From assembly GCA_026391315.1 (NCBI GenBank), contig JAPLDT010000088.1, positions 6,222-70,221 of the forward strand: a DNA stretch of 64,000 nucleotides, in the 5' to 3' direction. This document shows positions 2,075 through 63,659 of this stretch, piece by piece (position 1 is the first letter of the stretch; every line of letters begins with the position of its first letter). A program made the translations under genes and the position numbers. Below the pieces are notes generated by a model. That model ran no database searches. It was not told where the DNA came from and worked only from the letters and a program-made list of their open reading frames with translations. Origin of the DNA: Bacteroidia bacterium. Its GTDB lineage: Bacteria > Bacteroidota > Bacteroidia > Bacteroidales > Prolixibacteraceae.

Positions 2075-2080
2075 AGCGTT

Positions 2081-30167: not shown

Positions 30168-30177
30168 AATAAGACAA

Positions 30178-30207: not shown

Positions 30208-30228
30208 GGTCGAGGATCGATTTGAGGA

Positions 30229-30519
30229 TTATTTTTGCATTTTTAATAATCTTGCTGAATGATGTATCCGGACTACACCAATGTATTTACGGTGAATCTT
30301 ATAGATGATACGATAGCTGCCTTCAATTAGTTCTCTCAAGGATCTCTTCCCATATTCAGGTACGATCCTTCCTGACTCGGGAAACTGTTCAATCTGATCA
30401 ACCCGAGAAATAAGCTTTTCTACCAAATTGTTTGCATACGCATGAGACTCTTTTGAAATGTAATCGTGAATGTTTCTCAGGTCATCAATTGCAAGTTCTG
30501 TCCAAACAATTTTCACCAT
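30229..30519 (-). CDS. ParE/RelE-family type II toxin
   Basis: 96 aa. It shows IVWTELAIDDLRNIHDYI...FPESGRIVPEY...RELIEGSYRIIYKI...VVRIHHSAR. Confidence 0.8.
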   Translation of the reverse strand: MVKIVWTELAIDDLRNIHDYISKESHAYANNLVEKLISRVDQIEQFPESGRIVPEYGKRSLRELIEGSYRIIYKIHRKYIGVVRIHHSARLLKMQK

Positions 30520-30686
30520 TTTGAAACTATCTCTTTAACTTTGTTATGAGGAACGGTTTTTCCCTGTTCCAATTCTATTAGACCTTTCTCGACCTTTTCC
30601 ATAAAAATTAGTTTTTCAAACAAACTTTCAAGTTCAAAATCAGGAGGAAATTCTCTAATGGCATCAATCACAAGTTCCTTTTTCAT
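30513..30686 (-). CDS. Small antitoxin candidate paired with ParE
   Basis: Own translation gives MKKELVIDAIREFPPDFELESLFEKLIFMEKVEKGLIELEQGKTVPHNKVKEIVSKW. Its stop overlaps the toxin start (ATGGTGA). It is below the ORF-track length cutoff. Confidence 0.6.
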   Translation of the reverse strand: MKKELVIDAIREFPPDFELESLFEKLIFMEKVEKGLIELEQGKTVPHNKVKEIVSKW

Positions 30687-30720
30687 GTTTATATTTTGTT
30701 TTTTAATTGTCGGTTATCTA

Positions 30721-30750
30721 TTTCACGAATTATTACGAATTACACGAACG
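30721..30750 (-). repeat. ACGAAT-triplet motif
   Basis: The plus strand reads TTTCACGAATTATTACGAATTACACGAACG. It lies 34 nt upstream of the ParE-antitoxin start. Confidence 0.9.
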
Positions 30751-30770
30751 GGAGATCGGTAGTCGAGGTT

Positions 30771-31166
30771 TTATATTGAAGATGTTAAGTATTCAAGAAT
30801 TTTAAGGTAAAGTTCTTCGGCATATTTGAAGTTGGTTTCAACCTCTTCGCGAATGGGAACTATGTACCTCGGGCCAGGATAGCGATCTGTCTCGTAATAA
30901 TCACTGATAACTATAATAGCATCTATTTTAGATTTGTCAATTTGAATCTTCTCACAAACAAAACGAAATAGGATTGTTAAGGAATGTGTCCTGGGAATTG
31001 CAATACTGTGATATGCAAACACTGCTTTAAAAGATTTCTCGATAGTTTGATGTATTTCTAAAGCAATACTGTCAGTATAATGATTCTCTCTGATCAATAA
31101 TCTGGCTGTGTCCAAATTTTTCTTTGCCAGATTTAGCCACTCTAATGCGTACGCTTGATTAGGCAT
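30771..31166 (-). CDS. HEPN-domain protein (HepT-like toxin candidate)
   Basis: I start it at the internal Met (MPNQAYALEWL), which gives an ATGCCTAA 8-nt overlap with the upstream MNT gene. A conserved PRTHSL motif is present. The ORF track extends it to 31211. Confidence 0.7.
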   Translation of the reverse strand: MPNQAYALEWLNLAKKNLDTARLLIRENHYTDSIALEIHQTIEKSFKAVFAYHSIAIPRTHSLTILFRFVCEKIQIDKSKIDAIIVISDYYETDRYPGPRYIVPIREEVETNFKYAEELYLKILEYLTSSI

Positions 31167-31485
31167 AAATGGTTTTACCCTTGGTGTAAATCTCTTTATA
31201 GAATAGATCACCTAAATTAATTCTTTCCAGAATCCTCTTTTCGTTGTCAACAATAATATCGAATGAATAGTCGAGTTTGCCTAGTTTGACCCATAAAGCT
31301 TTTTTCAAGGTAATTCTAAAATCGCGTGTTTCATTTGCCGGGATGTTTTTTATAACCAAAAGATCAATATCACTGGACTCATTGGGTGTACCATAGGCAT
31401 ACGAGCCGAAAAGGATGATTTTCTCTACCCCATATTGTGTAATGATGGAAGTAACTTCTTTTAGTATTTTGTCTGGATTGGTCAT
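31159..31485 (-). CDS. Minimal nucleotidyltransferase (MNT/MntA-like antitoxin candidate)
   Basis: 108 aa. The NTase motif is LFGSYAYGTPNESSDIDLLV. Confidence 0.75.
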   Translation of the reverse strand: MTNPDKILKEVTSIITQYGVEKIILFGSYAYGTPNESSDIDLLVIKNIPANETRDFRITLKKALWVKLGKLDYSFDIIVDNEKRILERINLGDLFYKEIYTKGKTIYA

Positions 31486-31503
31486 TTAACTTCTGATAAA
31501 AGA

Positions 31504-31584
31504 TTTCACGAATCCCGAATCGCTCCGCTCTCGGGACGAATTCCATTAAAAACAATTTCACGAATTAAAACGAATTTCACGAAT
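31504..31584 (-). repeat. Composite of ACGAAT words with an embedded CCCGA...TCGGG hairpin unit
   Basis: The sequence is TTTCACGAATCCCGAATCGCTCCGCTCTCGGGACGAATT + CCATTAAAAACAA + TTTCACGAATTAAAACGAATTTCACGAAT. The same modules recur in swapped order at 32157-32248. Confidence 0.85.
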
Positions 31585-31778
31585 GGGATGAGGGGGTAAT
31601 GTAAATTACAATCCTTCAATTGCATTAGCCGGAATTATTCGGTGAATGTAAACTATGGAGCCAAAAATGGCAAATATTATAACCATTTCATGTGTATAAA
31701 ATTTGTTTTTTAATTGCCACATGGAATACCCACATATTCATTTTCGGTTGGTGTGAAAATATCCTCATGGGTATTTCT

Positions 31779-31973
31779 TTATAGTTTATGCGCTTTGTGT
31801 TTTGTCCGTATTTTAGTAATTGTGGTCGTGTATAATAAGGCAATGTTTCGTACGTCTACTCCGTAATGATTACTTAGTTTATCCCATACCTTGTCCCATA
31901 CTTCATTATGCGATAAAGCGGTACAGTTTTGTAAATCTTCGGGTAAAGGATATTCAATTGCAGCTACTTTCAT
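31779..31973 (-). CDS. Hypothetical small protein
   Basis: 64-aa ORF with no recognisable family. It shares its 105-nt upstream leader with the DUF2283 gene at 32344-32538. Confidence 0.35.
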   Translation of the reverse strand: MKVAAIEYPLPEDLQNCTALSHNEVWDKVWDKLSNHYGVDVRNIALLYTTTITKIRTKHKAHKL

Positions 31974-32073
31974 TCGTAAATATATTTGTTAAATTATTAT
32001 ATATCAGTATGTACTCATGGAACTCGCAAATGGATTTACATCGCCTTTTGTTAACTTAGCCCATGCTCGTTTC
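31969..32073 (-). repeat. 105-nt duplicated leader, copy a
   Basis: By eye it is about 80 percent identical to 32534-32638. It ends exactly at the start codon of the 64-aa gene. Confidence 0.85.
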
Positions 32074-32147
32074 TTGTGTTTTTCGATTTCGCGTACTAAT
32101 TTACGTCCGGTTGGGCTGTCGATATTTATGCGAGCTGTAACTTCCAT
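32004..32147 (-). CDS. Hypothetical small protein (47 aa)
   Basis: Own translation gives MEVTARINIDSPTGRKLVREIEKHKKRAWAKLTKGDVNPFASSMSTY. An ACGAAT-triplet motif lies 9 nt upstream of its start. Its 3' two-thirds lies in the duplicated leader, so coding status is doubtful. Confidence 0.25.
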   Translation of the reverse strand: MEVTARINIDSPTGRKLVREIEKHKKRAWAKLTKGDVNPFASSMSTY

Positions 32148-32156
32148 GATGTTAAT

Positions 32157-32248
32157 TTTACGAATGCCACGAATTTAAAACGAATTCCATTAAAAACAAT
32201 TTCACGAATCCCGAATCGCTCCGCTCTCGGGACGAATTAGACGAACGG
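32157..32248 (-). repeat. Composite of ACGAAT words with an embedded CCCGA...TCGGG hairpin unit (second copy)
   Basis: It shares CCATTAAAAACAATTTCACGAATCCCGAATCGCTCCGCTCTCGGGACGAATT with 31504-31560. Confidence 0.85.
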
Positions 32249-32343
32249 GACGAGGCAGATTTGTGTGGATTACTATGTTTTTTGTTAGTGATATTGTACA
32301 AAGTGTGTTCGTGCAATTGGTTTAAAATTAGTGGAATTAGTTT

Positions 32344-32538
32344 TTAAGCAACTTCATAAAGAATCCCTTTTTCTTGTTCCATTTTACTTGAAGCATTCAG
32401 AATTTCAATGCCTACTATTTGGCCATCTTCCGCATAATCAAGTATGATGTCAGGCTTTTCCTGATCACTTTCTGCTATTTTCTGAGAAGAAAAACTGATG
32501 TAGACTATATCAGTTTCTTTGTCATATTTGATTTTCAT
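32344..32538 (-). CDS. DUF2283-family small protein (antitoxin-like partner)
   Basis: 64 aa. MKIKYDKETDIVYISFSSQKIAESDQEKPDIILDYAEDGQIVGIEILNAS matches the DUF2283 pattern I know (KIxYDxExDxLYIxL...GxxVGIEIL). Confidence 0.65.
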   Translation of the reverse strand: MKIKYDKETDIVYISFSSQKIAESDQEKPDIILDYAEDGQIVGIEILNASSKMEQEKGILYEVA

Positions 32539-32638
32539 TCGTAAATATTATTAGTAAATTATTAAATTTCAGTAAGTACTCATGGAACTCGCAAATGCAC
32601 TTATATCGCTTTTTGTGACATTAGTCTTTGCTCGTTTC
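32534..32638 (-). repeat. 105-nt duplicated leader, copy b
   Basis: By eye it is about 80 percent identical to 31969-32073. It ends exactly at the start codon of the DUF2283 gene. Confidence 0.85.
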
Positions 32639-32893
32639 ATACTTTTCTATTTTTGATGTTTTATAAGCTGTAACAACCAAGGGTGGGTTTTTTGAGTTAT
32701 TAACAAATATTCTGTAAAGATATGGTTTGTCGATTTCAATGACAATTTTTTGATAGATATCAATATTTCCCGATTTTATTATTTTCTTCTCTTTTGATTG
32801 TAGAATTTCCTCTATTATTTGTTTTGAAAGGGATCGGGCCTCAATCTGATCAATTACATGATTTGAAAACTGAAATATCTGTTTTAATGACAT
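32621..32893 (-). CDS. DUF4258-family protein (BECR/RelE-like toxin candidate)
   Basis: 90 aa. It shows FSNHVIDQIEARSLSKQIIEEIL...LVVTAYK, the pattern of DUF4258 proteins that commonly pair with DUF2283. Confidence 0.55.
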   Translation of the reverse strand: MSLKQIFQFSNHVIDQIEARSLSKQIIEEILQSKEKKIIKSGNIDIYQKIVIEIDKPYLYRIFVNNSKNPPLVVTAYKTSKIEKYETSKD

Positions 32894-33162
32894 AGATTAA
32901 ATCATTCAATTAATATGAAACGAAGTTTGATGAAAATAATTACTTGAATGAATTAATAAAGATTTGTGAAGCCTTATTTTCTCAGATTAATCTTAGTTGA
33001 AAATTGGAGAGGATTGAATCTGAATCTTATTATATTATTTTTGAACAATCGCTCTTTCCGTCCGAAAATAGGTTACCCGCTTTTTATAAAATGCTACCGC
33101 GGACCGTGCATCTTTCATATTCCCAACCCTATATTTTTTGTTTGGTGATATTATCATAAATG

Positions 33163-33187
33163 CGTTCGTGTAATTCGTGAAATTCGT
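33163..33187 (+). repeat. ACGAAT-triplet motif, inverted orientation
   Basis: CGTTCGTGTAATTCGTGAAATTCGT is the reverse complement of the motif seen elsewhere. It is preceded by TATATTTTTTGTTTGGTGATATTATCATAAA, which is shared with 36375-36405. Confidence 0.85.
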
Positions 33188-33364
33188 TCTTCATTAGAGT
33201 TGTTTGGAAATCAACAACAAAGAGAAAAGGGTCATTGTAGCAGAGGTGGAATTGAGTTTATTCAAAAAATTAGCCCAAATTAAAACCACAGAACTTGAGC
33301 AAAAGATTATCTTTCGACCACCCCTAATTACAAATCCGCGCCAGTGGTATTTTTTTGTATTTTA

Positions 33365-38988: not shown

Positions 38989-39199
38989 ATGTTAATGAAG
39001 ATTTGTGCGAACAATTGAGTTATAAATTTGATATATAAACCTTATTTTTCTGTTTAAACCTTAGTAGAAATGGGTGGTAGATTGAATCTGACCTTATTAC
39101 CTTATTGAATTGGATAAATTAAATAAGGGTGGTTTTAGTATGAATGTTTTTCTTTTTCAAATATTGCATTTTTCCGTCTGAAACAGAAATTTACGCCTC

Positions 39200-41380: not shown

Positions 41381-41478
41381 AAGGTTTCAAAAATAAGGTT
41401 TATATTATCCTGGAATTCAATAATCACAGTTTCTCCGTTTCGTTTCTTCTTCGTTTCAATTCTTCCGGTTTCCCTGTT

Positions 41479-42591: not shown

Positions 42592-42702
42592 GTCAATTTT
42601 TTTGAGCAAGATGTTTGCCCTTCGGCTACGCTCAGGGACCGGTTCTGTTTTTCTCATTTTGTTGTTACCCTCTCACCTTCAATTATTAGCGCGTTCCGTC
42701 CG

Positions 42703-42990
42703 CCCTTCGGCTACGCTCAGGGACCGGTCTCATCTTCTTGTCATTCGTTCTGTCCGTCCGAATTAATCCTATTGATTTTCTCGGCATGCTACCGCGGACG
42801 GCTTTCTTCGCATCATTCCAACCCGGGGTGCCGCTCCTTCGTCGCTTTGCCCCGGGCTACAATACTATAACCGCTACGCGGTAGGATTCGAGAAGGATCC
42901 ACATTGTGGTCAGGAAATTTAGATTGTGCAAAAGCCAATTTTCACATTTTCACATTTTCACATTTTCCAATTTTCACATTATTTTCACCC
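42703..42990. repeat. Composite dispersed repeat of about 290 nt, copy 1
   Basis: By eye it aligns with 59628-59930 at roughly 80-85 percent. The order is the 25-nt repeat, GGTCTCATC, GTCCGTCCGAA, CTACCGCGGACGG, a GC hairpin, CCGCTACGCGG, GGATCCAnATTGTGGTCAGGAAATTTAG, then a TTTCACAT word array. Confidence 0.85.
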
Positions 42991-42995
42991 GTCTG

Positions 42996-43123
42996 CCCTT
43001 CGGCTTCGCTCAGGGACCACCCCGCTCAGGGACTGGTCTCATTTTCTCATATTCCCCCTCGGCTACGCTCGGGGACCGGTGACTTGTCCCAGTCATCCCC
43101 CTTCGGCTACGCTCAGGGACCGG
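42996..43123 (+). repeat. Cluster of three 25-nt repeats plus a partial duplicate
   Basis: Copies lie at 42996-43018 (with a partial repeat at 43021-43036), 43055-43079 and 43098-43123. Spacing is irregular. Confidence 0.85.
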
Positions 43124-43322
43124 CACTATTTCTTCGTCCCAGTCATCCTAGTCGTCCCACGGCTTCGCCTCCTCAGTCACATTTAGCAACCAAGCGGGCC
43201 CAACAAAATTTCCAATAAGGCGTTAAGTAAGGCAGCCGAATGCAAATATACATGACTTGAAACTGAATTCGGTAGGATAATAACGCTGGTACTGTAAGAA
43301 CAAAACCATAAACAATGACCCC

Positions 43323-43883
43323 TTACTGTTGAAAAGTGAAGGGGATATCGGTTTCTGACAAAAGTGGCAATTTCCGGTCCTTTTCAGAAAGTTGTAATAA
43401 TTCGGCTGGTAATTGCCAGTCAATCTGCAGATCAGGATCATCAAACCGTATTCCCGCATCGTAATCGGGGGCATAGAGGTTGTCGACTTTGTAGGAGAAA
43501 ATAGCCTCCTCGCTTAAAACCACAAACCCGTGAGCAAAGCCACGGGGTATAAAGAGTTGCTGTTTGCTGGTGTCATTAAGTTCGATGCAGTAGGATTGCT
43601 TGAAAGTTGGTGAACCCTTGCGCAGATCGACTACCACATCCAGGATCTGCCCTGTAATAACCCTGACCAGCTTGGCTTGCGAAAAGGGAGGCTTCTGAAA
43701 GTGCAATCCCCGAAGAACTCCCAGACCTGATTTGGATTCGTTGTCCTGGACGAATTCGGTCTTCCCTAAGGCTTCGTCAAACTTGGTTTGCTGGAAGGAT
43801 TCGAAGAAATATCCTCGCTGATCGCCGAAAACTTTGGGTTCAATCAGAAACAGGCCTGGGAATGGAGTCGAAATGAAGTTCAT
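43323..43883 (-). CDS. rmlC: dTDP-4-dehydrorhamnose 3,5-epimerase
   Basis: 186 aa. It shows FGDQRGYFFESF...LRGLHFQ...QAKLVRVITGQILDVVVDLR...IPRGFAHGF. Confidence 0.9.
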   Translation of the reverse strand: MNFISTPFPGLFLIEPKVFGDQRGYFFESFQQTKFDEALGKTEFVQDNESKSGLGVLRGLHFQKPPFSQAKLVRVITGQILDVVVDLRKGSPTFKQSYCIELNDTSKQQLFIPRGFAHGFVVLSEEAIFSYKVDNLYAPDYDAGIRFDDPDLQIDWQLPAELLQLSEKDRKLPLLSETDIPFTFQQ

Positions 43884-43924: not shown

Positions 43925-44794
43925 TCAAACCAGCGATAGCAAGTATTGTCCGTATTGATTCTTTTTTAGCAAATTACCTTGTTCACGGAGTTGAGCCTCG
44001 TCAATCCACTTGTTGCGAAAGGCGATCTCTTCTAGGCAGGCGACTTTGAGCCCCGTGCGTTTTTCGATGGTGGCAATGAAGGAGCCGGCCTCAAGCAACG
44101 ATTCATGGGTTCCGGTGTCGAGCCATGCGTAACCGCGACCCATCAGCTCAACTTTAAGCTCTTTTCTGTCGAGATAAACCTGGTTGACTGTGGTGATTTC
44201 CAGTTCGCCCCTGGGAGATGGTTTTATATTTTTTGCAATCCCTATCACAGAATTGGGGTAAAAGTAGAGTCCAATTACAGCATAATTGGATTTGGGTTTG
44301 TCAGGTTTCTCTTCGATGGTGGTGACATTTTCACTTGAATCGAATGTACATACCCCATAGCGTTCAGGATCATTGACCCAGTAGCCAAATACCGCAGCTT
44401 TTCTGTGAAAGGTCACCTGCTCAACGGCCTTGTTGAGGAGCTCAATAAATCCGTGTCCATAGAAAATATTGTCGCCTAAAACGAGACAGACGTCGTCGGA
44501 TCCAATAAAGTCTTCACCCAGTACAAATGCCTGGGCCAAACCATCCGGTGAAGGTTGGACAACATATTGAAGTTCAATGCCGAACTGAGAACCATCACCC
44601 AGCAGCCGGATAAAGGCGGCCTGTTCTTCGGGGGTAGTAATTATCAGTATTTCGCGGATGCCTGCCAGCATCAGCACCGACATAGGATAGTAAATCATCG
44701 GTTTATCGTAGATCGGGAGCAACTGCTTCGAAGTGCCAAGCGTAATCGGGTGCAGCCGCGATCCGGATCCGCCTGCAAGGATGATACCCTTCAT
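43925..44794 (-). CDS. rmlA: Glucose-1-phosphate thymidylyltransferase
   Basis: 289 aa. It shows [37 protein letters not shown]...[15 protein letters not shown]. Confidence 0.95.
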
Positions 44795-44871
44795 GGTAAG
44801 TGGATAAGTTGGTTTATAGGCGAAGATAGGAAGAATTTTGGAATGTTACGTTTTCTGGGGAATGAAACATT

Positions 44872-44951
44872 AAACGGGAAGAGGGAAACGGGAAGAGGGA
44901 AGAGGGAAACGGGAAGAGGGAAACGGGAAGAGGGAAGAGGGAAGAGGGAAT
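44872..44951 (+). repeat. Polypurine GGGAAGA/GGGAAAC tandem word array (about 13 GGG tracts)
   Basis: The sequence AAACGGGAAGAGGGAAACGGGAAGAGGGAAGAGGGAAACGGG... is read directly. It fits the G3-N4-G3 quadruplex motif many times over. Confidence 0.9.
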
Positions 44952-45049
44952 GGAGAGATAAATGTTGTTGGCAAATTTGGAATTATGGTAAAATATCGGT
45001 ATATTTAGGTAAGAGTTTAGGTTGTCAATTATTTTTAATTCTTTCAATT

Positions 45050-45427
45050 ATGAAAAATATAATATTGGTGCACACTGATTTAATTGTCTTTCAAAACGCA
45101 TTTAATTCGGCCGTTCAAATACATCAGTTTTCGCAAAACTTCCCATCTGAAGAAAAATTCTCCTTAACTGACCAAATTAGAAGAAGTTCACGATCAGTAG
45201 CTGCAAATCTTGCTGAGGCATTTAGAAAGAGAAGATACCCTAAGTCTTTTATTTCTAAATTGACAGATAGTGAAGGAGAGGCCGCAGAAACACAGGTATG
45301 GCTAAAGTTCGCAAATACCTTTAATTATCTTAACAGTGAGGATTATAATAAAATTAACTCAGCTTACGATCGCATTATTGCACAAATTGTTACGATGGTT
45401 CTCAATCCTGATAAGTGGACATTTTAA
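45050..45427 (+). CDS. Four-helix-bundle protein (TIGR02436 / 23S rRNA intervening-sequence protein family, Avd-like)
   Basis: 125 aa from the ATG at 45050. It shows FQNAFNSAVQIHQFSQNFPSEEKFSLTDQIRRSSRSVAANLAEAFRKRRYPKSFISKLTDSEGEAAETQVWL. The upstream part of track ORF 44555-45427 is antisense rmlA plus repeat sequence. Confidence 0.8.
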   Translation: MKNIILVHTDLIVFQNAFNSAVQIHQFSQNFPSEEKFSLTDQIRRSSRSVAANLAEAFRKRRYPKSFISKLTDSEGEAAETQVWLKFANTFNYLNSEDYNKINSAYDRIIAQIVTMVLNPDKWTF

Positions 45428-45466
45428 CTCCCACACCTCGCGTTTCCCGTTTCCCTCTTCGCTTCC

Positions 45467-45991
45467 TCATTCTTTCACCACAGCCAGATTGGTTGAGGGC
45501 GATTCTACCAGCACCGTAAAACCCAGCGGCAGAATGCGAAGGGCAACCCTGTTGTTGCCGCGAAAGGAGATGAGTTCACCACGGATGCCCATCATCGGAC
45601 CGGCAATGATTTCGACCTGCATGCCAGGAAGCAGCTCCTCCCTGGTAATTTCGACCTCTACCTCACTCTGTCCGAGCATCCGTTTGAGGATTTCAATGTC
45701 ATGGTCACGGATCACCGCTGCCTTTCCTTCGAAACGGACATACTGCATCACATTGTCGATTTGCAGTACGACATCGTAGTGTTTCCTGGTGATGTGAACA
45801 AATACATACCCGGAAATAAGCGGTATTTCTACCCATTTTTTACGGTCGCTCCACTGACGAAGCTTTCGTTGAAGAGGCAGGAAGGATTCGATTCCCTTAA
45901 ATTTTAACTCTTCATGTACCTTTTTCTCTGCACGTGAGTGGACATAGACAGCATGCCATTGTTCGATAAGGGGTTTTTCTTTTGGGGACAT
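45467..45991 (-). CDS. UpxY-family (NusG-like) transcription antiterminator
   Basis: 174 aa. It has an NGN domain (WHAVYVHSRAEKKVHEEL...ESFLPL) and a KOW-like region (GMQVEIIAGPMMGIRGELISF). It is the first gene of the locus, as in Bacteroides capsule operons. Confidence 0.8.
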   Translation of the reverse strand: MSPKEKPLIEQWHAVYVHSRAEKKVHEELKFKGIESFLPLQRKLRQWSDRKKWVEIPLISGYVFVHITRKHYDVVLQIDNVMQYVRFEGKAAVIRDHDIEILKRMLGQSEVEVEITREELLPGMQVEIIAGPMMGIRGELISFRGNNRVALRILPLGFTVLVESPSTNLAVVKE

Positions 45992-46056
45992 ATTCGGTAG
46001 ATTATAGATTCATACATCATTGAAAAAGAAGGGGAGACTGGGCGAATGAAAGAAAT

Positions 46057-46357
46057 GTTTGAAATGTTTAAAAAGTTTGAAAAGTTACCGGTCCCTGAGC
46101 GAAGTCGAAGGGAAATGTTTGAAATGTTTAGGAAGTTTAAAAAGTTGCTGGTCCCTGAGCCTGTCGAAGGGGCGAAGTAATTGGATAAAATAGTCACCGG
46201 TCCCTGAGCTTGTCGAAGGGGTTTTTCTGTATGGACCTTATGGTAAATAAATTTCACAACAAAGATCACAAGAGTTGACACGAAGGACACAAGGACTTCA
46301 ATTTTTCGGTTAAACTCCGGCACCGTTAACATTTCAAACTTTTTAAACATTTCAAAC
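46057..46357. promoter_or_regulatory. 30-bp inverted repeat pair (29/30 match) bracketing a 241-bp segment upstream of upxY; candidate invertible element
   Basis: The left arm at 46057-46086 is GTTTGAAATGTTTAAAAAGTTTGAAAAGTT. The right arm at 46328-46357 is AACATTTCAAACTTTTTAAACATTTCAAAC. The interior holds three reversed 25-nt repeats (46088-46112, 46148-46172, 46197-46221) and a second left-arm-like copy at 46117-46146. Confidence 0.5.
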
Positions 46358-46438
46358 AATTTAAACCAATAAGAAGTTGCGCAATTCTAAAAGTATAGGA
46401 TATGCAGGCAAAAGCATTCTCCCCTTCTCCCCCTCTTT

Positions 46439-48874
46439 TTACTTTGGGAAGCCCGATGGCGGTGCAGCCGCAGCGTCCGCGCCCCAGCTTTTGTTGGGCA
46501 ACTCGCCCATCTGCAGCTCAAGCAGCGCCCCATTCATCAGTTCCTCATGAGTAAACCACGGTTTGTTAAGCGGTTGACCATTCAGTTTGGCGCTTTGGAT
46601 GTACTTGTTTTTGACAGAACATCCGGTTGCTTTGATGGTAAAAGTCTTACCATTCCCGAGGGATATTTTTACCTCCTCGAAAAGCGGAGAGCCAATGTTG
46701 TAGTTGGGCAATCCAGGGGTAACCGGATAAAAGCCCATCGAGGAGAAGACCACAAATGCGGTCATACCACCGCCGTCCTCGTCACCGGGTATGCCGAAAA
46801 TGTTGTCCTTGAACCAGACATCCAGCAGAAAACGAATCCGCTTCTGGGTTTTCCAGGGTTCACCCGAATAGTTGTAGAGGTAGGGGATGAAGAAACTTGG
46901 TTCGTTGCCCATCGAATATTGCCCTACCATGCCGGTGGCATCGGCGAATTTGGCCCAGAAAGCGAATTTACTCCGGCCAAGCGGCTCGCGGAAAAGCTGA
47001 TCGATGGTGGCTGTGAATCCTTCGCGTCCACCCATCAACCCAATGAGGCCGTGGAGATCGTGTTGTGCCTGCCATGCATAGGTATAGCCGTTGTTTTCGT
47101 CGTAATAATCGCGTCCGCCAGGACCGCCATCGAATTTTGGATCAATGTCGATCCAGTTTCCGGCAGAATCTTTCGGCCACATTAGCTTCTTATCAGGACG
47201 ATAGAGGTTGCGGTAGTTGAGCGATTGTTTACGGTAGTAGACCGCATCATTAGGCTTGTTCAGCTCTCCTGCCATTTCAGATAAGGCCCAGTCGTCGAAA
47301 CTATGAGCGAGGGTGATGGCAACACTCTCGCGACGTTCAAAATCGTGCACAAGCTTGACCGTCTCAGTCTGTCCTGGCCACAAAGCAGGGTAAAAGCCTT
47401 TTTCGCGGTAGAATGTGTCGAGGATGCATTTCGGACCATTTCGCCAGGGAAGCATGGTGGCTGAGGTGGCATTCTTCAGCATCCCTTCGTAAGCTTTAGG
47501 GACATCAAAATTGCGGATCCCTTTTCGGTAACCATCCAGCAGTGCTACGGTGGAGTGAAAACCATTCATGGCAGGATCATCTTTGAATAGCAGCGGAAAT
47601 TGCGGCAGCCATCCCCCCTGTTCATACATGGTGACATACGATTGCAGCATGTCTCCCTCCATTTCGGGATGAAGAATGGAACGGAGTGGGTGCATGGCGA
47701 GATAAGTGTCCCAAATCCAGTCGTCCACGTAAAAATCGCGGGTGGTGGGGTGTACTTTGTGGTCGTAAGCGCTGTAGTATTGACCATGCTCGTTGATGTT
47801 GATCATCCTTTCGTACTGCCTGTACAGAGAGGTGTAGAAGGTGCGGCGCTGGGCTTCCGTACCTCCTTTTACCTTAATCTGGTCCATCACGGTAGTCCAT
47901 TTTTGCTCGGCATTTTTTCTGGTTCCGTCAAAATCCCATGCCGGAATCTCTGCTGCCAGATTGGCTTTGGCCTGTTGGATGCTGATAAAGGAGATGGCGT
48001 ATTTCATCACCACTTCCGAAGGGGTATTGGCTCCAAAGCGAATCCATGCACCCGGTTTGACGGATGATTCTCCTTTTTTAGGATCGGAAACCTGAAGGCT
48101 CAGCTTTCCGGCTTGACCGGCCTGGTTCACTTCACCGTACACATAAGCTTTCATCCCCATAAACTCTTCCGTTCCAGAAAAAGACATTCCCGATCTCCCA
48201 GTCTCCCAGTCCCCCAGTCCCTTAGTCTTTCCGTCTTTACTTCTTTCGGTCGCCCCTTCGCCCCCTCGTCCCTTCACCCCCTCGTTTTCCATCTCCCAAC
48301 TTCCCTGGTTGACAACGCGTAGCGCCAAAAACTTCTCTCCCTTACCAGGAAAGCTAAACCTGAAAATACCGCATTTGGCGCCGGGAGTGAACTCAGTTTT
48401 GATGTTGTTGTCAATGAAGTAGGTGGAATAGTAAAACGGACGAGTAATCTCCAGATCGTGGTCATAGGTTTGCCGTTTTCCCCAGGTTTCAGCTTTTGGC
48501 TCCCCCAGATAAGGCATGACTCCAAACAATTCCCCTTTGCGGTGGGAGGAGATGGTTAACGGAAAAAAACTGATCTGATCATCTAAATAATCTGCACGGA
48601 CAGGATAAAAACGTACCATTTGGTTAGGCAGATGCACTGTTGGACGCGTAGGCTGAAGGAGGATACCGACATTGCCAATGGTGGGGTCGACAGTTTCAAG
48701 ATTGGTGCGGGTTTGGGCGGTTGCGGAAAATGCGGATATTAGAAAGATAAGGGAAATGACGGAGAGACGGAGGGACGGAGGGACTAGGGGACTTGGAGAC
48801 TGGGAGACTGGGAGACTGGGAGAATTGACACTCGTACCTCTTCGAAACGGGATTGAAAATAGTTTGCTTTTCAT
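46439..48874 (-). CDS. GH92-family glycoside hydrolase (alpha-mannosidase-like), secreted
   Basis: I start it at Met-12 of the track ORF (MKSKLF...). It has GH92 hallmarks: YDHDLEITRPFYYSTYF, GMVGQYSMGNEPSFFIPYLY and GIPGDEDGGGMTAFVVFSSMGFYPVTPG. It carries two in-frame repeat-derived inserts (see findings). Confidence 0.85.
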   Translation of the reverse strand: MKSKLFSIPFRRGTSVNSPSLPVSQSPSPLVPPSLRLSVISLIFLISAFSATAQTRTNLETVDPTIGNVGILLQPTRPTVHLPNQMVRFYPVRADYLDDQISFFPLTISSHRKGELFGVMPYLGEPKAETWGKRQTYDHDLEITRPFYYSTYFIDNNIKTEFTPGAKCGIFRFSFPGKGEKFLALRVVNQGSWEMENEGVKGRGGEGATERSKDGKTKGLGDWETGRSGMSFSGTEEFMGMKAYVYGEVNQAGQAGKLSLQVSDPKKGESSVKPGAWIRFGANTPSEVVMKYAISFISIQQAKANLAAEIPAWDFDGTRKNAEQKWTTVMDQIKVKGGTEAQRRTFYTSLYRQYERMININEHGQYYSAYDHKVHPTTRDFYVDDWIWDTYLAMHPLRSILHPEMEGDMLQSYVTMYEQGGWLPQFPLLFKDDPAMNGFHSTVALLDGYRKGIRNFDVPKAYEGMLKNATSATMLPWRNGPKCILDTFYREKGFYPALWPGQTETVKLVHDFERRESVAITLAHSFDDWALSEMAGELNKPNDAVYYRKQSLNYRNLYRPDKKLMWPKDSAGNWIDIDPKFDGGPGGRDYYDENNGYTYAWQAQHDLHGLIGLMGGREGFTATIDQLFREPLGRSKFAFWAKFADATGMVGQYSMGNEPSFFIPYLYNYSGEPWKTQKRIRFLLDVWFKDNIFGIPGDEDGGGMTAFVVFSSMGFYPVTPGLPNYNIGSPLFEEVKISLGNGKTFTIKATGCSVKNKYIQSAKLNGQPLNKPWFTHEELMNGALLELQMGELPNKSWGADAAAAPPSGFPK
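48187..48290 (-). repeat. Repeat-word segment translated in frame inside GH92 (internal)
   Basis: The plus strand reads TCTCCCAGTCTCCCAGTCCCCCAGTCCC...CGCCCCTTCGCCCCCTCGTCCCTTCACCCCCTCG. It encodes ENEGVKGRGGEGATERSKDGKTKGLGDWETGRSG. The boundaries are approximate. Confidence 0.7.
48761..48832 (-). repeat. Repeat-word segment translated in frame in the GH92 signal-peptide n-region
   Basis: The plus strand reads GGAGAGACGGAGGGACGGAGGGACTAGGGGACTTGGAGACTGGGAGACTGGGAGACTGGGAGA. It encodes SPSLPVSQSPSPLVPPSLRLS. It is inverted relative to 48197-48222. Confidence 0.75.
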
Positions 48875-48936
48875 TGTAGTAGTTATAGTATGATTCAAAT
48901 AGTTCAATTTAAATTACTTTGAGACCTTAGTGAAAT

Positions 48937-50512: not shown

Positions 50513-50537
50513 TGAATAAGTTTGAAATGTTTTTTTA

Positions 50538-50558
50538 GTTTGAAATGTTTGAAGGGTT
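50538..50558. repeat. Left arm of the perfect 21-bp inverted repeat bracketing the second four-helix-bundle gene
   Basis: GTTTGAAATGTTTGAAGGGTT. Its exact reverse complement occurs at 51018-51038 and again at 51036-51056. Confidence 0.9.
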
Positions 50559-50615
50559 ACGGCCTCTTTGTAATTTGTTTAAAGGGTTTGAAATGTTTAT
50601 AATGTTTGAAATGTT

Positions 50616-51008
50616 ATGACTATTAAATGCTTTGAAGATTTAGAGATTTGGCAGGAAGCACGAGAATTGTGTAAACTGGTGAGACAAGTCACATTTAGGG
50701 AACCATTTGTAAATGAGTTCAGATTCAGGGATCAAATGAACGCATCGGCTGGATCGATAATGGATAACATTGCAGAAGGATTTGACAGAGGAGGAAACAA
50801 GGAATTCATACAATTTCTGAGTATCAGTAAAGGATCTTGCGATGAAACCCGCTCTCAATGTTACCGGGCTTTTGATGCCGGGTATATACAGGAAACAGAA
50901 CTCAATGATCTTTTGGGACGAACCCAACGATTAAAATTAAAAATTGGCAATTTTATGGAATACCTTAAACATAGTCCCCTAACCGGAACCAAATACAAGA
51001 AAGATTGA
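50616..51008 (+). CDS. Four-helix-bundle protein (TIGR02436 / 23S rRNA intervening-sequence protein family, Avd-like)
   Basis: 130 aa. It shows FEDLEIWQEARELCKLV...FRDQMNASAGSIMDNIAEGFDRGGNKEFIQFLSISKGSCDETRSQ. Confidence 0.85.
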   Translation: MTIKCFEDLEIWQEARELCKLVRQVTFREPFVNEFRFRDQMNASAGSIMDNIAEGFDRGGNKEFIQFLSISKGSCDETRSQCYRAFDAGYIQETELNDLLGRTQRLKLKIGNFMEYLKHSPLTGTKYKKD

Positions 51009-51017
51009 AATATTTCA

Positions 51018-51056
51018 AACCCTTCAAACATTTCAAACCCTTCAAACATTTCAAAC
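51018..51056. repeat. Right arm (two overlapping registers) of the 21-bp inverted repeat
   Basis: AACCCTTCAAACATTTCAAAC occurs at 51018-51038 and at 51036-51056. Confidence 0.9.
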
Positions 51057-51076
51057 AATTAAAACTACTATTTATC

Positions 51077-52432: not shown

Positions 52433-52601
52433 AAAAAGTTTGAAGGGTTTGAAAAGTTTAAAATGTTTAGCGCCCCAAACACTTCAATTTTTTTGAACAC
52501 TTCAAACAAACTAAAATATCTTTCGGCAGACTCAGAAACCATTGGATCTTGGTAGGGATGTTCCGAGACCGTAACCCTTCAAACATTTTAAACTTTTAGG
52601 A

Positions 52602-54076: not shown

Positions 54077-54243
54077 TATATAAACCTTATTTTTTAAAAT
54101 CAATCTTAGTAGAAAGGTGGATGCGTGGGATGTGGATCTTATTATCTTATTTTATAATTGTCAGAGAATAAGATAATAAGATTGGGGATTCAATCTAATG
54201 TCTGATTCTACTAAGATTAAAAAACTGATTATAAGGTTTATAT
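54077..54243. mobile_element. MITE-like palindromic element of about 167 bp with no coding capacity
   Basis: The left half is TATATAAACCTTATTTTTTAAAATCAATCTTAGTAGAAA...GGATCTTATTATCTTAT. It is mirrored by ATAAGATAATAAGATT...TTTCTACTAAGATTAAAAAACTGATTATAAGGTTTATAT. Half copies lie at about 32965-33040, 36470-36545 and 39045-39125. Confidence 0.7.
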
Positions 54244-56683: not shown

Positions 56684-56814
56684 TTGGAAAATGTGAAAAT
56701 TGAGGAACGATCAGATGTAAAATTATAAAAGGAATTGGAATTTTTATGAATTCTATTTTCCCTTAACACAAATCTTTCTTCATTTTCCAATTTTCCAATT
56801 TTCACATTTTCCAA
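56684..56814. repeat. 19-bp perfect inverted repeat spanning almost the whole DUF4838/aldose-epimerase spacer
   Basis: The left arm at 56684-56702 is TTGGAAAATGTGAAAATTG. The right arm at 56796-56814 is CAATTTTCACATTTTCCAA. The loop is 93 nt. Confidence 0.85.
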
Positions 56815-56822
56815 TTTTCACA

Positions 56823-59549
56823 TTATTTGATGTTTTCAATCAGACTGTGAAACGCCTTCCTCTCCACCTCCCCGCCTTCGGAGTAATGGGTTACATTTTC
56901 GCGTTTTGCAATACGGCAGAAATTGTCGTAGGTGCCATCCTGACGGGCAATGGCTGGTGTGCGTTTGCATTTGAGATAGAGAACTGGCAAGGAGCACATT
57001 TCAACACGGCGAACCACTTCGTCATTGTCGGCTACTTTAACCGCCTCTTTGAAAATATCGCACGACTGTTGCACGAAATCATCGGAGAAGATGGCATCGC
57101 CCGGTGTCAGTCCCAGATGTATATGGGTATCCGGTGTGATACGGTTGTGCAGCAGATCGAAATATTGCCTGACGAACTTTCCGGCCCGACCATAATAACC
57201 GTACATGAAATCGTTGATAACTGCCTCAGTATTGCACTCCGGATTCCACAATAATTTGGAAATCAGGTAGGAACGAAGCTCGGAAAACTCACCCCCACGG
57301 CTTTGGTAAGCAGCCTGCTCCATGATGCCAATGGCGTTGTTGTCCCTGAACGACTGTATGTTGGATTGCAGTACCCTGAAGTTGGGGTAAGGCATCACAT
57401 AATGCAAGAAATTAACCACATAATCCCAGATGTACATGTGGGGCGCAATGGCCGACCATCCCTTCAGATCATTGAGGAAGGATTTGTTTTCGGGACAGGA
57501 TTTGAAATCGTGTGCGAAACAGCATTCGATGCTGCACAACCGCACCACCACATTGTTCCTGGGCTTGATGTCTTTTGGCGGTGTTCTGGTATAAGTGTAG
57601 GCCAGTGTGCCGATAAATTTGTCAGGGAACTCCTTCTCCACCGCTTCGGCCACCTGATTTACAAACCAGATGATCAGTCCGGATTCGCTCCCTTTGGCCT
57701 TGACTATGGCCTGGCATTTGTCGCATTGGCACGGGTTGTTCCAGTCGTTTTGGGAGACATCGTAAATCAGGTATTCAGGACTTTCGCGCATCCGTTTTCT
57801 GATACGGTCTGTGATAATTCGCAGTACATCCGGGTTTGTGAGGCAAAGCTGTGCCTGCTCATGGATCCGTTTGCCATCGATTAAACTGTAATATTCGGGA
57901 TGTTTTTTGTAAAATTCTTCCGGTGGCATCAGCGGGTAAAAGGTATGAACCGCCCAGTAGCTATCGATGCCGCCGGGTTGTTCGCGGTAGCCCATGGCTC
58001 CGTTCATCTTGTTGCGGGTGGCCCAGATCGGATCAAAAGCCTCAAAATAGAAATCATTCCGTACCCGGACGCCCGGTTTTTCGGCATGGTCGAACCAGAC
58101 AAATTTCAGCTCCTCCCTTTTGGGGATCACATTCACGGTAGGGGTGTACCAACGGCAGCCCAGCTCTCTTTCCAGGAATTCGAAGACACCATACATGGTG
58201 CCACGCTTCTGGCCTCCGGTGATGAAAATGTTAGGACCGGAGTTGTAGTAGTGGAAGGATTCTTCGGCTGAAGCGGTGGTCTCCGCTGAGCCTGTCGAAG
58301 CGTGAAACCTTACAAGTGGGGATAAGTCGGTCCCTGAGCTTGTCGAAGGGTTTTGGGAGCTCTTCGAATCTGACTGAAAAGTGATTGATGACGCTTCGAC
58401 AGGCTCAGCGACCGGATCTTTCTTCTTCATTGTCAATTTGTTCACTTCGACAGGCTCAGTGAACAAATTGACTGCATCAGTACCAACTACAATTTTCGGT
58501 CCTTTATAATTCGGGTCTTCAGGGAGTTGCGGCAATTCCACCCCACTGATCTCCTTCAACCAGTGCTGAAGCTCTTTGGCAGCCCATTTTTCTGATTCTG
58601 AGGCATTGTTGGCAATGGCGATCCGGTAATCAGATTTTCCATGACTGAAAAGTGCATATTCGATTCGCTTTCCTGCCGTGAATTCGCTTGTTCGTTGCAG
58701 TATCTTTCCCGATTTCAGCTGAACAGTAACCTTTGCCTGGTATGGTTGGTAATTGGCTGACGGAATTTTAAGCGGAGTACAAAAGTTGGCAGTACGATCC
58801 ACCTTCAGGATCTCGGTGCCGTGAATGTCGCTGATGGTTACAGTTACTTTTTGAATCAGGTAGTTCAAAACATCCGGAAGGTAGGAGGAGAGGACGCTTG
58901 CAGTTCCGGATTCGTCAGCCCGGACTTTGAAAAGATCACCTCTATTGAGGGCTTCTGCAGCGGAAAAATTGTGAAATCTCAGGGCGAATCCCCATTTGTT
59001 TCCATGCTGTTCGACTTTTAACAGGAGGGTGTTGGTTCCTTTTTTTAGCATAACGGGGATCAGATCTCCATCAATTATGACACTGCGCTTGGTCGGATAA
59101 TCGAAAACTGAAGTACCGTTTACGAAGAGTTGTGCCCCGTCGTTGGTGCCCAGGCCAATCAGGTGAACACCCTCTTCTGCTGCCTCGACACTGGTAAAGG
59201 CATAGGCAAAAACGGGATAAGATTTGGAGAAGGCTGCGACCAGGTCGACGATCGAATCGGTCGACTGCCAATATTTCCAGACCATCGACTTTTTGCCGAT
59301 TTTGATTGCATCGCCGGCTTTTACCGATAGGTTTTGCTCTCCGCCCAATTTGCCGAGGTAATCTGTCTTGAATCCGGGAAGGTGATCCCACGATTTTTCG
59401 GGATCCGGCTGAGTTTGCAGCGGGATCGGACCGAGCAGCAGCCAGGATTTTAGGAATTGGCCGGGGATGATTTTCTGCGGAACATTTTGACAAAATCCCG
59501 GCAGGGAAATAAGTAGGAATAAAGAAATAGAAAGAAATAGTTGTTTCAT
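56823..59549 (-). CDS. DUF4838-domain putative glycoside hydrolase with N-terminal carbohydrate-binding-like region; carries an in-frame repeat insertion
   Basis: 908 aa. It has a signal peptide (MKQLFLSISLFLLISLPGFC). AAKELQHWLKEISGVELP and RGTMYGVFEFLERELGCRWYTP are typical of DUF4838 proteins. Confidence 0.65.
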   Translation of the reverse strand: MKQLFLSISLFLLISLPGFCQNVPQKIIPGQFLKSWLLLGPIPLQTQPDPEKSWDHLPGFKTDYLGKLGGEQNLSVKAGDAIKIGKKSMVWKYWQSTDSIVDLVAAFSKSYPVFAYAFTSVEAAEEGVHLIGLGTNDGAQLFVNGTSVFDYPTKRSVIIDGDLIPVMLKKGTNTLLLKVEQHGNKWGFALRFHNFSAAEALNRGDLFKVRADESGTASVLSSYLPDVLNYLIQKVTVTISDIHGTEILKVDRTANFCTPLKIPSANYQPYQAKVTVQLKSGKILQRTSEFTAGKRIEYALFSHGKSDYRIAIANNASESEKWAAKELQHWLKEISGVELPQLPEDPNYKGPKIVVGTDAVNLFTEPVEVNKLTMKKKDPVAEPVEASSITFQSDSKSSQNPSTSSGTDLSPLVRFHASTGSAETTASAEESFHYYNSGPNIFITGGQKRGTMYGVFEFLERELGCRWYTPTVNVIPKREELKFVWFDHAEKPGVRVRNDFYFEAFDPIWATRNKMNGAMGYREQPGGIDSYWAVHTFYPLMPPEEFYKKHPEYYSLIDGKRIHEQAQLCLTNPDVLRIITDRIRKRMRESPEYLIYDVSQNDWNNPCQCDKCQAIVKAKGSESGLIIWFVNQVAEAVEKEFPDKFIGTLAYTYTRTPPKDIKPRNNVVVRLCSIECCFAHDFKSCPENKSFLNDLKGWSAIAPHMYIWDYVVNFLHYVMPYPNFRVLQSNIQSFRDNNAIGIMEQAAYQSRGGEFSELRSYLISKLLWNPECNTEAVINDFMYGYYGRAGKFVRQYFDLLHNRITPDTHIHLGLTPGDAIFSDDFVQQSCDIFKEAVKVADNDEVVRRVEMCSLPVLYLKCKRTPAIARQDGTYDNFCRIAKRENVTHYSEGGEVERKAFHSLIENIK
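58270..58472 (-). repeat. Nested palindromic repeat block of about 200 nt translated in frame inside the DUF4838 gene
   Basis: Four CTGAGC-NNN-TCGAAG units are present, two in each orientation. There is a perfect 19-bp inverted repeat (58284-58302 / 58392-58410) and a 14-bp-stem palindrome at 58432-58472. Confidence 0.8.
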
Positions 59550-63651: not shown

Positions 63652-63659
63652 GAAGTCAG

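Follow-up and report, generated by a model that had tools for sequence, protein, structure and literature searches.

The question raised by this locus is what a small gene for a four-helix-bundle protein, bracketed by inverted repeats, is doing on the opposite strand between two genes of a polysaccharide cluster. The gene (45050–45427, plus strand, 125 aa) lies in a window of 64 kb, by which we mean the whole stretch of DNA analysed, between a UpxY-like gene with a NusG domain (upxY, PF02357; 45467–45991, minus strand; orthologues in loci L082–L094) and rmlA (43925–44794, minus strand), which codes for an NTP_transferase-domain protein of the glucose-1-phosphate thymidylyltransferase family and is followed by the RmlC gene (43323–43883, minus strand). 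Its product matched PF05635 (23S_rRNA_IVP; E = 7.9e-31, 106.9 bits, cut-off 33.8) and TIGR02436 (101.6 bits, cut-off 24), both scores exceeding the curated thresholds, and has the PDB relatives 2GSC (E = 1e-9) and 2RLD (E = 1e-8). Comparison with relatives revealed strong purifying selection (dN/dS 0.04–0.12). The original prediction had placed this CDS antisense and directly after upxY, as we found, and had it interrupting the operon, a wording slightly too strong because a promoter-like box of rmlA lies in the spacer: the candidate −7 box TATCTTCG (44821–44828, minus strand), between the repeats and rmlA, has an equivalent of the form TAnnTTTG in the orthologous spacers of L084, L087, L090, L091 and L092.

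The genes within about 5 kb code for RmlA and RmlC, an aminotransferase, an acetyltransferase, UpxY and a GH92 protein. These neighbours bear on the idea that the gene is the Avd accessory gene of a diversity-generating retroelement (DGR). Avd proteins share with our protein the four-helix-bundle fold family, small size, basic character and a pentameric state in solved relatives, and the product shows a weak likeness to bAvd (PF22296, 28.4 bits) and NF033474 (26.9 bits); however, the respective cut-offs of 40 and 80 bits were not reached, neither a reverse transcriptase nor a template/variable repeat was present within about 5 kb, and the surroundings consist of sugar-nucleotide enzymes, UpxY and GH92. 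We rejected this identity, which we regard as extremely improbable.

Together with two repeat arms the gene forms a unit of 44876–45463, referred to below as the cassette. The 5' arm (44876–44950, plus strand; 75 nt) is a tandem array of GGGAAGA and GGGAAAC heptamers (TRF period 7, 10.7 copies, score 108) with 53% G and 4% C, whose 11 GGG tracts with 4-nt gaps place it among G-rich heptamer SSRs (at least four G-tracts). The 3' arm (45437–45463, plus strand) consists of two copies of CGTTTCC followed by CTCTTC and lies in a stop-to-upxY spacer (45428–45466) with 51% C and 10% G. On the minus strand this arm reads as G-rich and begins 6 nt past the upxY stop codon. The 17-mer GAAGAGGGAAACGGGAA, which had been noticed upstream of the gene in three registers, occurs exactly at 44878, 44899 and 44913 (plus strand), all within the array, and the exact reverse complement that had been reported after the stop codon is located at 45444–45460. 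The ORF is thus enclosed by terminal inverted repeats of 17 nt exact and up to 27 nt imperfect match (identity falling from 95% over 20 nt to 87% over 23 nt and 78% over 27 nt). Nor are these words as dense in any other spacer: allowing up to two mismatches, the 17-mer was matched seven times across the 64-kb window, each time within this locus, against 0.01 expected from 100 dinucleotide-preserving shuffles, none of which reached seven. The arm duplex was calculated at −54 kcal/mol, compared with −43.8 ± 3.8 kcal/mol when the right arm was shuffled (about 2.7 sd), a modest gain over any pyrimidine-rich partner. In line with the earlier proposal of an enclosing stem formed from either strand, minimum-energy and centroid folds predicted a gene-enclosing stem on both strands; folding z-scores of the whole cassette (−1.1 and −0.9) lacked significance, since most of the energy comes from internal pairs.

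A candidate promoter of the Bacteroidetes −33/−7 type lies in the left arm (44976–45007, plus strand) and comprises TTTG (44976–44979), a 20-nt spacer and TATATTTA (45000–45007), its end being 42 nt from the ATG (48 nt from promoter to start when the gene start is set at 45056). It is overlapped by a sigma-70-like match (44977–45005), and conservation of the motif suggests function: it is kept in position in L002 (two copies), L003, L004, L006, L007, L011 and L014 and is also carried by the leaders of L162 and L163. In the subfamily of the window, this position of the promoter would leave the mRNA of the gene without the 5' arm. In most lineages the 5' array reaches within 5–40 nt of the ATG, so that the mRNA must contain both arms.

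The window contains a second cassette of the same architecture (50520–51065, plus strand), recognised by its arrays, a TIGR02436 match and its duplex energy: a 5' arm made of a GTTTGAAAT array (50520–50615), a TIGR02436 gene (50616–51008) and a 3' arm made of a ATTTCAAAC array (51004–51065), all on the plus strand. Its repeat unit differs from that of the first cassette, its 3' arm contains 26% C and 0% G, and its duplex reached −56.4 kcal/mol versus −19.6 ± 3.4 kcal/mol for shuffles. A solo pyrimidine-rich arm (41431–41478, plus strand) was found in the acetyltransferase–aminotransferase spacer; L002 and L003 have whole cassettes at this position, and the solo arm is the orthologue of their right arm. 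Neither copy of the gene in the window matched a PADLOC model of anti-phage defence at E ≤ 0.01, and an Rfam scan of the 64 kb matched no family, rRNA included.

In so array-rich a region two arrays of opposite orientation might lie on either side of a small gene by chance: TRF returned 71 rows for the window, several inverted array pairs enclose no such gene, and GTTTGAAAT is present in many spacers. The arm word of the first cassette, in contrast, is confined to its two flanks within the window, and the association of gene and arms recurs across phyla. When the 300-nt flanks were scored for their best inverted match (threshold 13), 67% of 73 homologues from at least seven phyla (Bacteroidota, Cyanobacteriota, Chloroflexota, Planctomycetota, Verrucomicrobiota, Acidobacteriota and Cloacimonadota) had locus-matched inverted arms, as against 2.3% of 343 non-family neighbour genes in the same loci (Mann-Whitney p = 4e-30) and 6.6% of mismatched pairings of left and right flanks; direct repeats reached 13 in 8 of 83 cases (median 9). 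Arms were weak or undetectable in about a third of the homologues. As the same arms also accompany the gene to a different site (see below), and as the mismatched-pair, shuffle and neighbour-gene controls contradict coincidence, we rejected this explanation as very improbable. None of 174 related loci showed conserved rRNA motifs, and the earlier idea of an IVS-type cassette (IVS, intervening sequence) outside rRNA, with most of the sampled family members and both window copies bracketed by inverted repeats, is largely upheld; the refuting checks named with that idea, when carried out, did not overturn it. The gene with its mirror-image G-rich repeat arms is a widespread accessory cassette and not peculiar to the upxY–rmlA locus; among six finished plasmids from cyanobacteria in culture, four had the same arms. 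In the open-access full texts searched, no paper was found that ties PF05635/TIGR02436 genes to flanking inverted arrays.

The arms have a fixed polarity, with G exceeding C in the 5' arm at 51 of 55 loci (mean G 46%, C 10%). Since a G-first inverted repeat is G-first on both strands, this polarity is uninformative on flipping, and reading gene orientation from it was rejected. A G4 motif was present in the 5' arm at 8 of 40 Bacteroidota loci versus 7 of 10 cyanobacterial loci. Subfamilies have very dissimilar arms, which would not be expected of ends that a transposase binds in trans. The more alike two proteins were, the more arm 7-mers were shared, the proportion going from 0.1% to 10.7%, and comparison of relatives showed hypervariable arm units around an invariant gene.

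Presence of the cassette is polymorphic. In most close relatives the family gene is absent from the orthologous upxY–rmlA spacer, which measures 48–228 nt in the gene-free loci L087, L088, L091–L094 and L120; the spacer of L082 (94% UpxY identity) contains only a solo C-arm and another repeat element, and that of L090 a cassette of 73% identity whose arms are different. At a different site in another metagenome (L163) lies a gene of 85% identity that carries the 23-nt arm word unchanged, the word occurring in no other of 163 loci. In L162 and L163 the same gene-X stop codon and junction are joined to cassettes of opposite orientation, the genes of which share 94% amino acid identity (dS 0.49 between the inverted copies). 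Flipping at the DNA level, which the original prediction had considered, is therefore backed by the comparison of these two loci; both orientations were not found within one population, ten contigs with an identical protein all having the same one. With the element at different sites and orthologous sites free of the gene, the cassette shows the pattern expected of movement and, judged from these sequence comparisons, is probably a mobile accessory unit. However, no transposase, integrase or reverse transcriptase was found in or adjoining the cassette, whose sole ORF encodes the 125-aa protein, and for want of a clean and sufficiently close empty site among the orthologous spacers a target-site duplication could not be delimited; presence and absence could also stem from deletion and horizontal replacement. 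No homologue of the gene was found in the phage genomes searched, and the single match to the arm word among the viral contigs scanned, which lay in unrelated coding sequence away from any family gene, was taken as chance.

A promoter enclosed by arms, in an UpxY-type polysaccharide cluster, with inversion between fixed arms in L162 and L163 and with relatives carrying cassettes in other spacers of similar clusters, recalls the invertible capsule promoters of Bacteroides, which also combine a promoter within inverted repeats, such a locus and inversion polymorphism in relatives. Recombination between the arms would turn the promoter either toward rmlA (sense) or toward upxY (antisense). The cassette differs from those promoters in lying downstream of upxY, in bearing a gene, in its tandem-array arms and in its many other contexts and phyla. 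Cassettes also stand beside unrelated genes and in phyla without such loci, one of them was sampled ten times in a single orientation, no recombinase adjoins the cassette at upxY–rmlA, and the dS between the inverted copies gives no support for frequent flipping. To our knowledge, its arms are unlike the known invertase sites of Bacteroides. A switch for the polysaccharide locus thus appears unlikely.

Among the known elements nearest to the cassette are the IVSs of 23S rRNA that encode an S23p/PF05635 ORF in Coxiella burnetii and Leptospira and are regarded as selfish (PMC4990558). They resemble the cassette in size (about 0.45–0.6 kb), in sporadic distribution and in carrying the same protein family in a loop closed by a long stem of terminal inverted repeats, which measures 28 bp and is cut by RNase III (PMC4990558). 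They are located in helix 25/45 of the 23S rRNA, whereas the cassette lies between protein-coding genes; its arms, which may also set it apart, are tandem arrays of 7–9-nt units with G-first polarity, its subfamily in the window has a candidate promoter of its own, and its protein is under strong purifying selection, while the Coxiella ORF has been reported as decaying and unexpressed (PMC4990558). The cassette might nevertheless be primarily an RNA element and a true equivalent of these IVSs, with arms that serve an RNase III-cleaved stem, either cutting the cassette from read-through transcripts or giving a stable end-paired mRNA, and with the DNA events as by-products. The long-range stems predicted on both strands, the mRNAs that hold both arms in most lineages and the position of 42 of 55 cassettes between co-directional genes are all consistent with such an element. 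In contrast, arm mismatches showed no strand-specific G-U signature, G-U-compatible changes being in excess on neither strand (103 vs 115, p = 0.46), transversions were as common as transitions, and the promoter lies within the left arm in the subfamily of the window. Between the orthologous cassettes L007 and L011 no clean case of compensatory arm change was seen, and cross-pairing equalled own pairing, which makes that comparison uninformative. Selection at the RNA level thus receives no support from these comparisons, and we consider a primarily RNA-based element possible, at rather less than even chances.

Polarity and composition of the arms also suggest a transcriptional insulator, in which the C-rich, G-poor arm, present on every outgoing transcript, would act as a Rho loading site that ends transcripts born in the cassette, and pairing with the G-rich arm would mask this site in read-through transcripts so that host read-through survives. 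The G-first order, the C-rich and G-poor 3' arms of both cassettes, a candidate internal promoter pointing into the antisense strand of upxY and the lack of an intrinsic terminator on either strand of 44700–46500 would all fit. The scheme is, however, purely inferential; the arm of about 40–55 nt is short for a rut site here, the C>G skew is missing from some arms such as GACTATAC in L004, and the polarity is equally attributable to the way arms are generated or to G-quadruplex effects. We regard an insulator as doubtful.

The reading we favour, with some confidence, is that 44876–45463 is a self-contained, foldback-like accessory cassette with the arms as its working ends, and does not belong to the polysaccharide operon. 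The whole unit, in the order G-rich tandem arm, own Bacteroidetes-type promoter, TIGR02436/PF05635 gene and C-rich reverse-complement arm, would represent an insertion, arms included, into the stretch that runs from the upxY stop codon to the promoter of rmlA. At the DNA level the arms would behave as recombining inverted repeats, accounting for cassettes flipped between fixed arms and for reduction to solo arms, and arm units would turn over fast while the gene stays constant. At the RNA level, a transcript crossing the cassette on either strand would make the G-rich arm first and its C-rich complement after it, and the two might pair into a stem of about 20–30 bp around the gene, with the geometry cleaved by RNase III in rRNA IVSs carrying the same gene family. 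Transcripts from the internal promoter would be free of the G arm and expose a C-rich, G-poor tail as a plausible Rho loading site. The four-helix-bundle protein, as the sole product, is presumably needed for maintenance or spread of the element. The tandem-array nature of the arms, their fixed G-first polarity and the polymorphic insertion among relatives had escaped the original prediction.

In architecture, and by analogy only, the cassette is comparable to eukaryotic Foldback transposons such as Tetris, FB and Galileo (PMC4079207), which likewise have long, length-variable terminal inverted repeats composed of short tandem repeats, an optional coding centre and many gene-less copies, and which likewise promote inversions; Foldbacks carry or depend on a known transposase, whereas for the cassette neither a transposase nor a target-site duplication was found. 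Its arms likewise resemble the intergenic G-rich heptamer arrays (GGGNATC) of Xanthomonas and Nostoc described by Rehm et al. (2015) and the cyanobacterial STRR heptamers. The former include 70–75 'convergent' inverted pairs per Xanthomonas genome and are transcribed and G-quadruplex-prone, and a GGGAATC array extends over the start of the PF05635 gene XCC0516, whose protein is that of PDB 2GSC (PMC4692102). Rehm et al. treat the arrays as a genome-wide sequence class and draw no link to PF05635 genes or a cassette (PMC4692102); unlike that class, the unit of the cassette changes from locus to locus and between subfamilies, and it accompanies the gene.

PF05635/TIGR02436, a family whose function is known only in the case of DGR Avd, is very large, with 6,472 clusters at 50% identity reached by a single-sequence search and 7,984 of 8,000 scored candidates at E ≤ 1e-10; the G-rich short tandem arrays of bacterial spacers (STRR, GGGNATC) are likewise unexplained. 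Most homologues are on contigs shorter than 2 kb, and the cassette model would account for assembly breaks near family genes. Joining gene family and arrays in one cassette, with an internal promoter, arms of constant polarity, solo-arm relics and relatives that differ in its presence and orientation, provides a concrete, testable model for both puzzles, and the cultured carriers identified here, among them Salinimicrobium xinjiangense DSM 19287, Chryseobacterium taichungense DSM 17453, Cyclobacterium lianum and Nostoc and Tolypothrix with plasmid copies, are suited to the RNase III, Rho and recombination hypotheses. At upxY–rmlA the insertion is outside the capsule pathway, yet may perturb transcription from upxY to rmlA. 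More generally, and tentatively, PF05635/TIGR02436 genes with their arms may constitute a large, cross-phylum and so far unrecognised class of bacterial foldback-like mobile cassettes, of which the ORF-bearing 23S IVSs would be the special case in an rRNA helix, one landing site of a general element; many G-rich heptamer or octamer arrays and convergent pairs of bacterial spacers would then be arms or remnants, and the Avd-like pentameric protein a maintenance or mobility factor that might, for example, bind the arms or an RNA intermediate.

The gene at 45050-45427 (+ strand) codes for a four-helix-bundle protein of 125 aa that matches both PF05635 (23S_rRNA_IVP; E 8e-31 in a profile search) and TIGR02436 ("four helix bundle protein"; 101.6 bits, cut-off 24) and for which sequence comparison gives 2GSC (Xanthomonas XCC0516) and 2RLD as PDB relatives. 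It is located on the strand opposite to its neighbours, a UpxY-like gene with a NusG domain (45467-45991, - strand) and rmlA (43925-44794, - strand), with rmlC next in order. The 5' arm upstream of the gene (44876-44950) is a tandem array of 10.7 copies of a GGGAAGA/GGGAAAC heptamer, within which the 17-mer GAAGAGGGAAACGGGAA is present three times; the exact reverse complement of this word was found at 45444-45460, 17 nt past the stop codon. The gene, its antisense position and its repeat bracket are all as described in the original prediction, and the flanking words far exceed chance: with up to two mismatches, GAAGAGGGAAACGGGAA has seven matches in the window, every one at the cassette locus, compared with 0.01 expected from shuffles. 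The dN/dS values of 0.04-0.12 show that the cassette gene is under strong purifying selection. Identity with Avd, the DGR accessory protein of the same fold, was ruled out: Avd models gave only sub-threshold similarity to the protein, and no reverse transcriptase is encoded nearby. The PADLOC defence models did not match the cassette, and no intrinsic terminator was predicted on either strand of 44700-46500.

The bracket was compared across 80 relative loci (50-78% identity), taken from one-genome-per-species contigs of Bacteroidota, Cyanobacteriota, Chloroflexota, Planctomycetota, Verrucomicrobiota, Acidobacteriota and Cloacimonadota. Each gene was scored by the top ungapped inverted match of its 300-nt upstream flank with its 300-nt downstream flank (threshold at least 13). 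That threshold was reached by 55 of all 83 hits, whose scores had a median of 15 and a maximum of 73 (over 103 nt), and by 67% of the 73 with a profile E < 1e-40, compared with 8/83 for direct matches in the same flanks (median 9), 6.6% when the left flank of one locus was paired with the right flank of another, and 2.3% of the 343 genes outside the family at these loci (Mann-Whitney p 4e-30). The inverted-array bracket belongs to the gene family and generalises across phyla, supporting the predicted IVS-type cassette in an mRNA spacer. The arms consist of 7-9-nt units in tandem, with a unit that varies from one locus to the next (e.g. GACTGGGA, GGGGAGA, GGGTGAG, GAAAGAGG, GCAGGGA and GACTATAC), and their presence in four of six finished plasmid loci of cultured cyanobacteria indicates that the bracket is not an assembly artefact. 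A GGGAATC-type array, Xcc repeat #15 (622956-622983), overlaps the annotated start of XCC0516 (PMC4692102, supplementary file 2), which shows the same association in a gammaproteobacterium, passed over by the authors. Of the six cyanobacterial plasmid loci, two carry a gene for a tyrosine recombinase/integrase immediately downstream of the cassette (L178, Tolypothrix plasmid, 1987-3003; L180, Brasilonema plasmid, 2054-2989). In the Prolixibacteraceae/Tangfeifania MAG loci L004 and L007 the cassette adjoins a putative RNase P RNA gene (GGAAAGTCCGGGC motif, identified by eye), suggesting insertion beside a stable-RNA gene.

A six-frame profile search revealed exactly one other family member in the window, at 50616-51008 (+), and it is likewise bracketed by inverted arrays. 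This second cassette (50520-51065, + strand) has a 5' arm of GTTTGAAAT arrays (50520-50615) and a 3' arm of ATTTCAAAC arrays (51004-51065), with a unit unlike that of the first cassette and an arm duplex of -56 kcal/mol versus -20 ± 3 for shuffled partners; it points in the same direction as the neighbouring genes for a 3-keto-disaccharide hydrolase and a GFO/IDH/MocA oxidoreductase. Inverted array pairs with the G-rich arm first and no four-helix-bundle gene are present at 46052-46366, 52434-52597, 56684-56824, 62489-62682 and 62553-63988; one gene-less pair lies just upstream of upxY with 181 nt inside, and another pair encloses a xylose-isomerase-like TIM-barrel ORF (62758-63651). The gene-less pairs may be remnants or gene-less relatives of cassettes. 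The GH92 glycoside hydrolase ORF (46439-48907, - strand) carries in-frame, mutually inverted tandem arrays at 48194-48285 and 48758-48823 (units GACTGGGA/GACGGAGG and complements); one of the two falls in the signal-peptide region, the other within the N-terminal domain at approximately residues 207-238. A 25-nt REP-like element, CCCTTCGGCTACGCTCAGGGACCGG, recurs many times, directly and as its reverse complement, in the long spacers 42620-43125 and 46088-46220, and a related inverted pair (58284-58459) lies inside a 908-aa ORF (56823-59549). A MITE-like hairpin element with the ends ATATAAACCTTATTTTTT...CTTAGTAGAAA is located at 54078-54243 and 63660-63868, with fragments at 39033-39049 and 41389-41405. 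Between the Wzz-like and Wza-like genes (30168-33364), small toxin-antitoxin-like modules, named by reading translations (RelE/ParE-like, HEPN plus nucleotidyltransferase, and DUF2283-like plus DUF4258-like), are separated by AATTTCACGAAT arrays at 30176, 30720, 31554 and 32198, with the reverse complement at 33163; other small accessory genes may also be delimited by tandem arrays.

Orthologous upxY-rmlA junctions from metagenomes (UpxY identity 65-94%) point to the cassette being an accessory, probably mobile insertion. The spacer measures 48 nt in L120, 85 nt in L093 and 107-228 nt in L087, L088, L091, L092 and L094, the last five containing neither gene nor arrays. In the closest relative, L082, it holds no gene but a solo C-rich array and a different hairpin, which is a full copy of the MITE-like element where the window has the cassette; in L084, G- and C-type arrays surround content unrelated to the TIGR02436 family, and L090 has a cassette that is 73% identical and likewise antisense, its long arms being built from other units. 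The reverse situation is found at the window's acetyltransferase-aminotransferase spacer, where a solo pyrimidine-rich array (41431-41478) lies next to the aminotransferase stop codon: in L002 and L003 the sequence that aligns to 41381-41478 comprises the right arm of a full cassette together with the end of the adjoining gene, and the window has the solo arm there, with a piece of another repeat element (AAAAATAAGGTTTATAT) next to it. The nearest homologues of the window protein, in L162 and L163 (86% and 85% identical; 94% to each other), adjoin the stop codon of gene X, a phosphoesterase-like gene that is unrelated and absent from the window, and a 23-nt arm word, GAAGAGGGAAACGGGAAGAGGGA, is identical in the window and L163 and occurs in no other of 163 loci. 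In L162 the gene-X stop codon is followed by the G-arm, the leader and the gene in sense, in L163 by the G-arm and the gene in antisense; the junction being the same, the inter-arm segment has been inverted, giving comparative support to the suggested flipping at the DNA level. Misassembly is unlikely, given that a typical read is longer than an arm and that the arms have no long exact words in common. The proportion of arm 7-mers common to locus pairs rises from 0.1% (protein identity <45%) to 10.7% (identity at least 75%), and in ten contigs encoding an identical protein the leader and gene are invariant while the arm units vary. No transposase, integrase or reverse transcriptase was found near the window cassette, and no target-site duplication was found for it. 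Taken together, the comparisons show that the unit is a self-contained cassette that is acquired, lost and moved in one piece, and that recombination of its inverted arms gives rise to inversion, to solo arms and to a fast turnover of units.

The 5'-side arm is G-rich in 51 of 55 loci with clear arms (mean G 46%, C 10%), and the right arm usually starts 0-40 nt past the stop codon. Since the two strands of an inverted repeat read alike, this polarity is a property of the structure and not of gene orientation, and whichever way a transcript crosses the cassette, its G-rich arm is made first and its C-rich arm last. In a close Bacteroidia subgroup (the window copy, both copies in L002, L003, L004, L006, L007, L011, L014, L162 and L163), a leader of approximately 85-100 nt between left arm and ATG contains a conserved Bacteroidetes-type candidate promoter, TTTG-N19-21-TAtaTTTA, which places a candidate internal promoter at 44976-45007 in the window. 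In other lineages the array extends to 5-40 nt from the start codon, so that the mRNA must contain both arms.

Folding predicts a gene-enclosing stem on both strands, as had been proposed. In a transcript traversing the cassette, which at the window locus would be minus-strand read-through from upxY, the arms could pair into a 20-30 bp stem around the gene, by analogy the geometry cleaved by RNase III in rRNA IVSs with the same gene family (PMC4990558). The G-first polarity would suit such a design, as C-rich, G-poor RNA would not be exposed before its partner is made; transcripts initiated at the internal promoter would be missing the G arm, leaving the C-rich tail at their end (51% C, 10% G in the upxY-rmlA cassette) exposed as a candidate Rho loading site. 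This RNA view is tempered by arm mismatches with no strand-specific G-U bias (103 vs 115) and by an arm duplex at the upxY-rmlA locus only approximately 2.7 sd better than shuffled pyrimidine-rich partners, and RNA processing and gating of read-through are put forward as hypotheses.

Among known systems, ORF-bearing 23S rRNA IVSs resemble the cassette in gene family and terminal stem but are defined by their rRNA location, a feature the cassette does not have. The G-rich heptamer arrays of Xanthomonas and Nostoc, which include unexplained convergent pairs (PMC4692102), are also among the closest, whereas eukaryotic Foldback transposons, the terminal repeats of which are made of tandem repeats (PMC4079207), are similar in architecture only. 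In the open-access literature we found no link between the TIGR02436/PF05635 family and flanking inverted arrays, and a description elsewhere is possible. We see a fair, though less than even, chance that the cassette belongs to a so far unrecognised class of foldback-like mobile cassettes in bacteria, with the rRNA IVSs as a special case.
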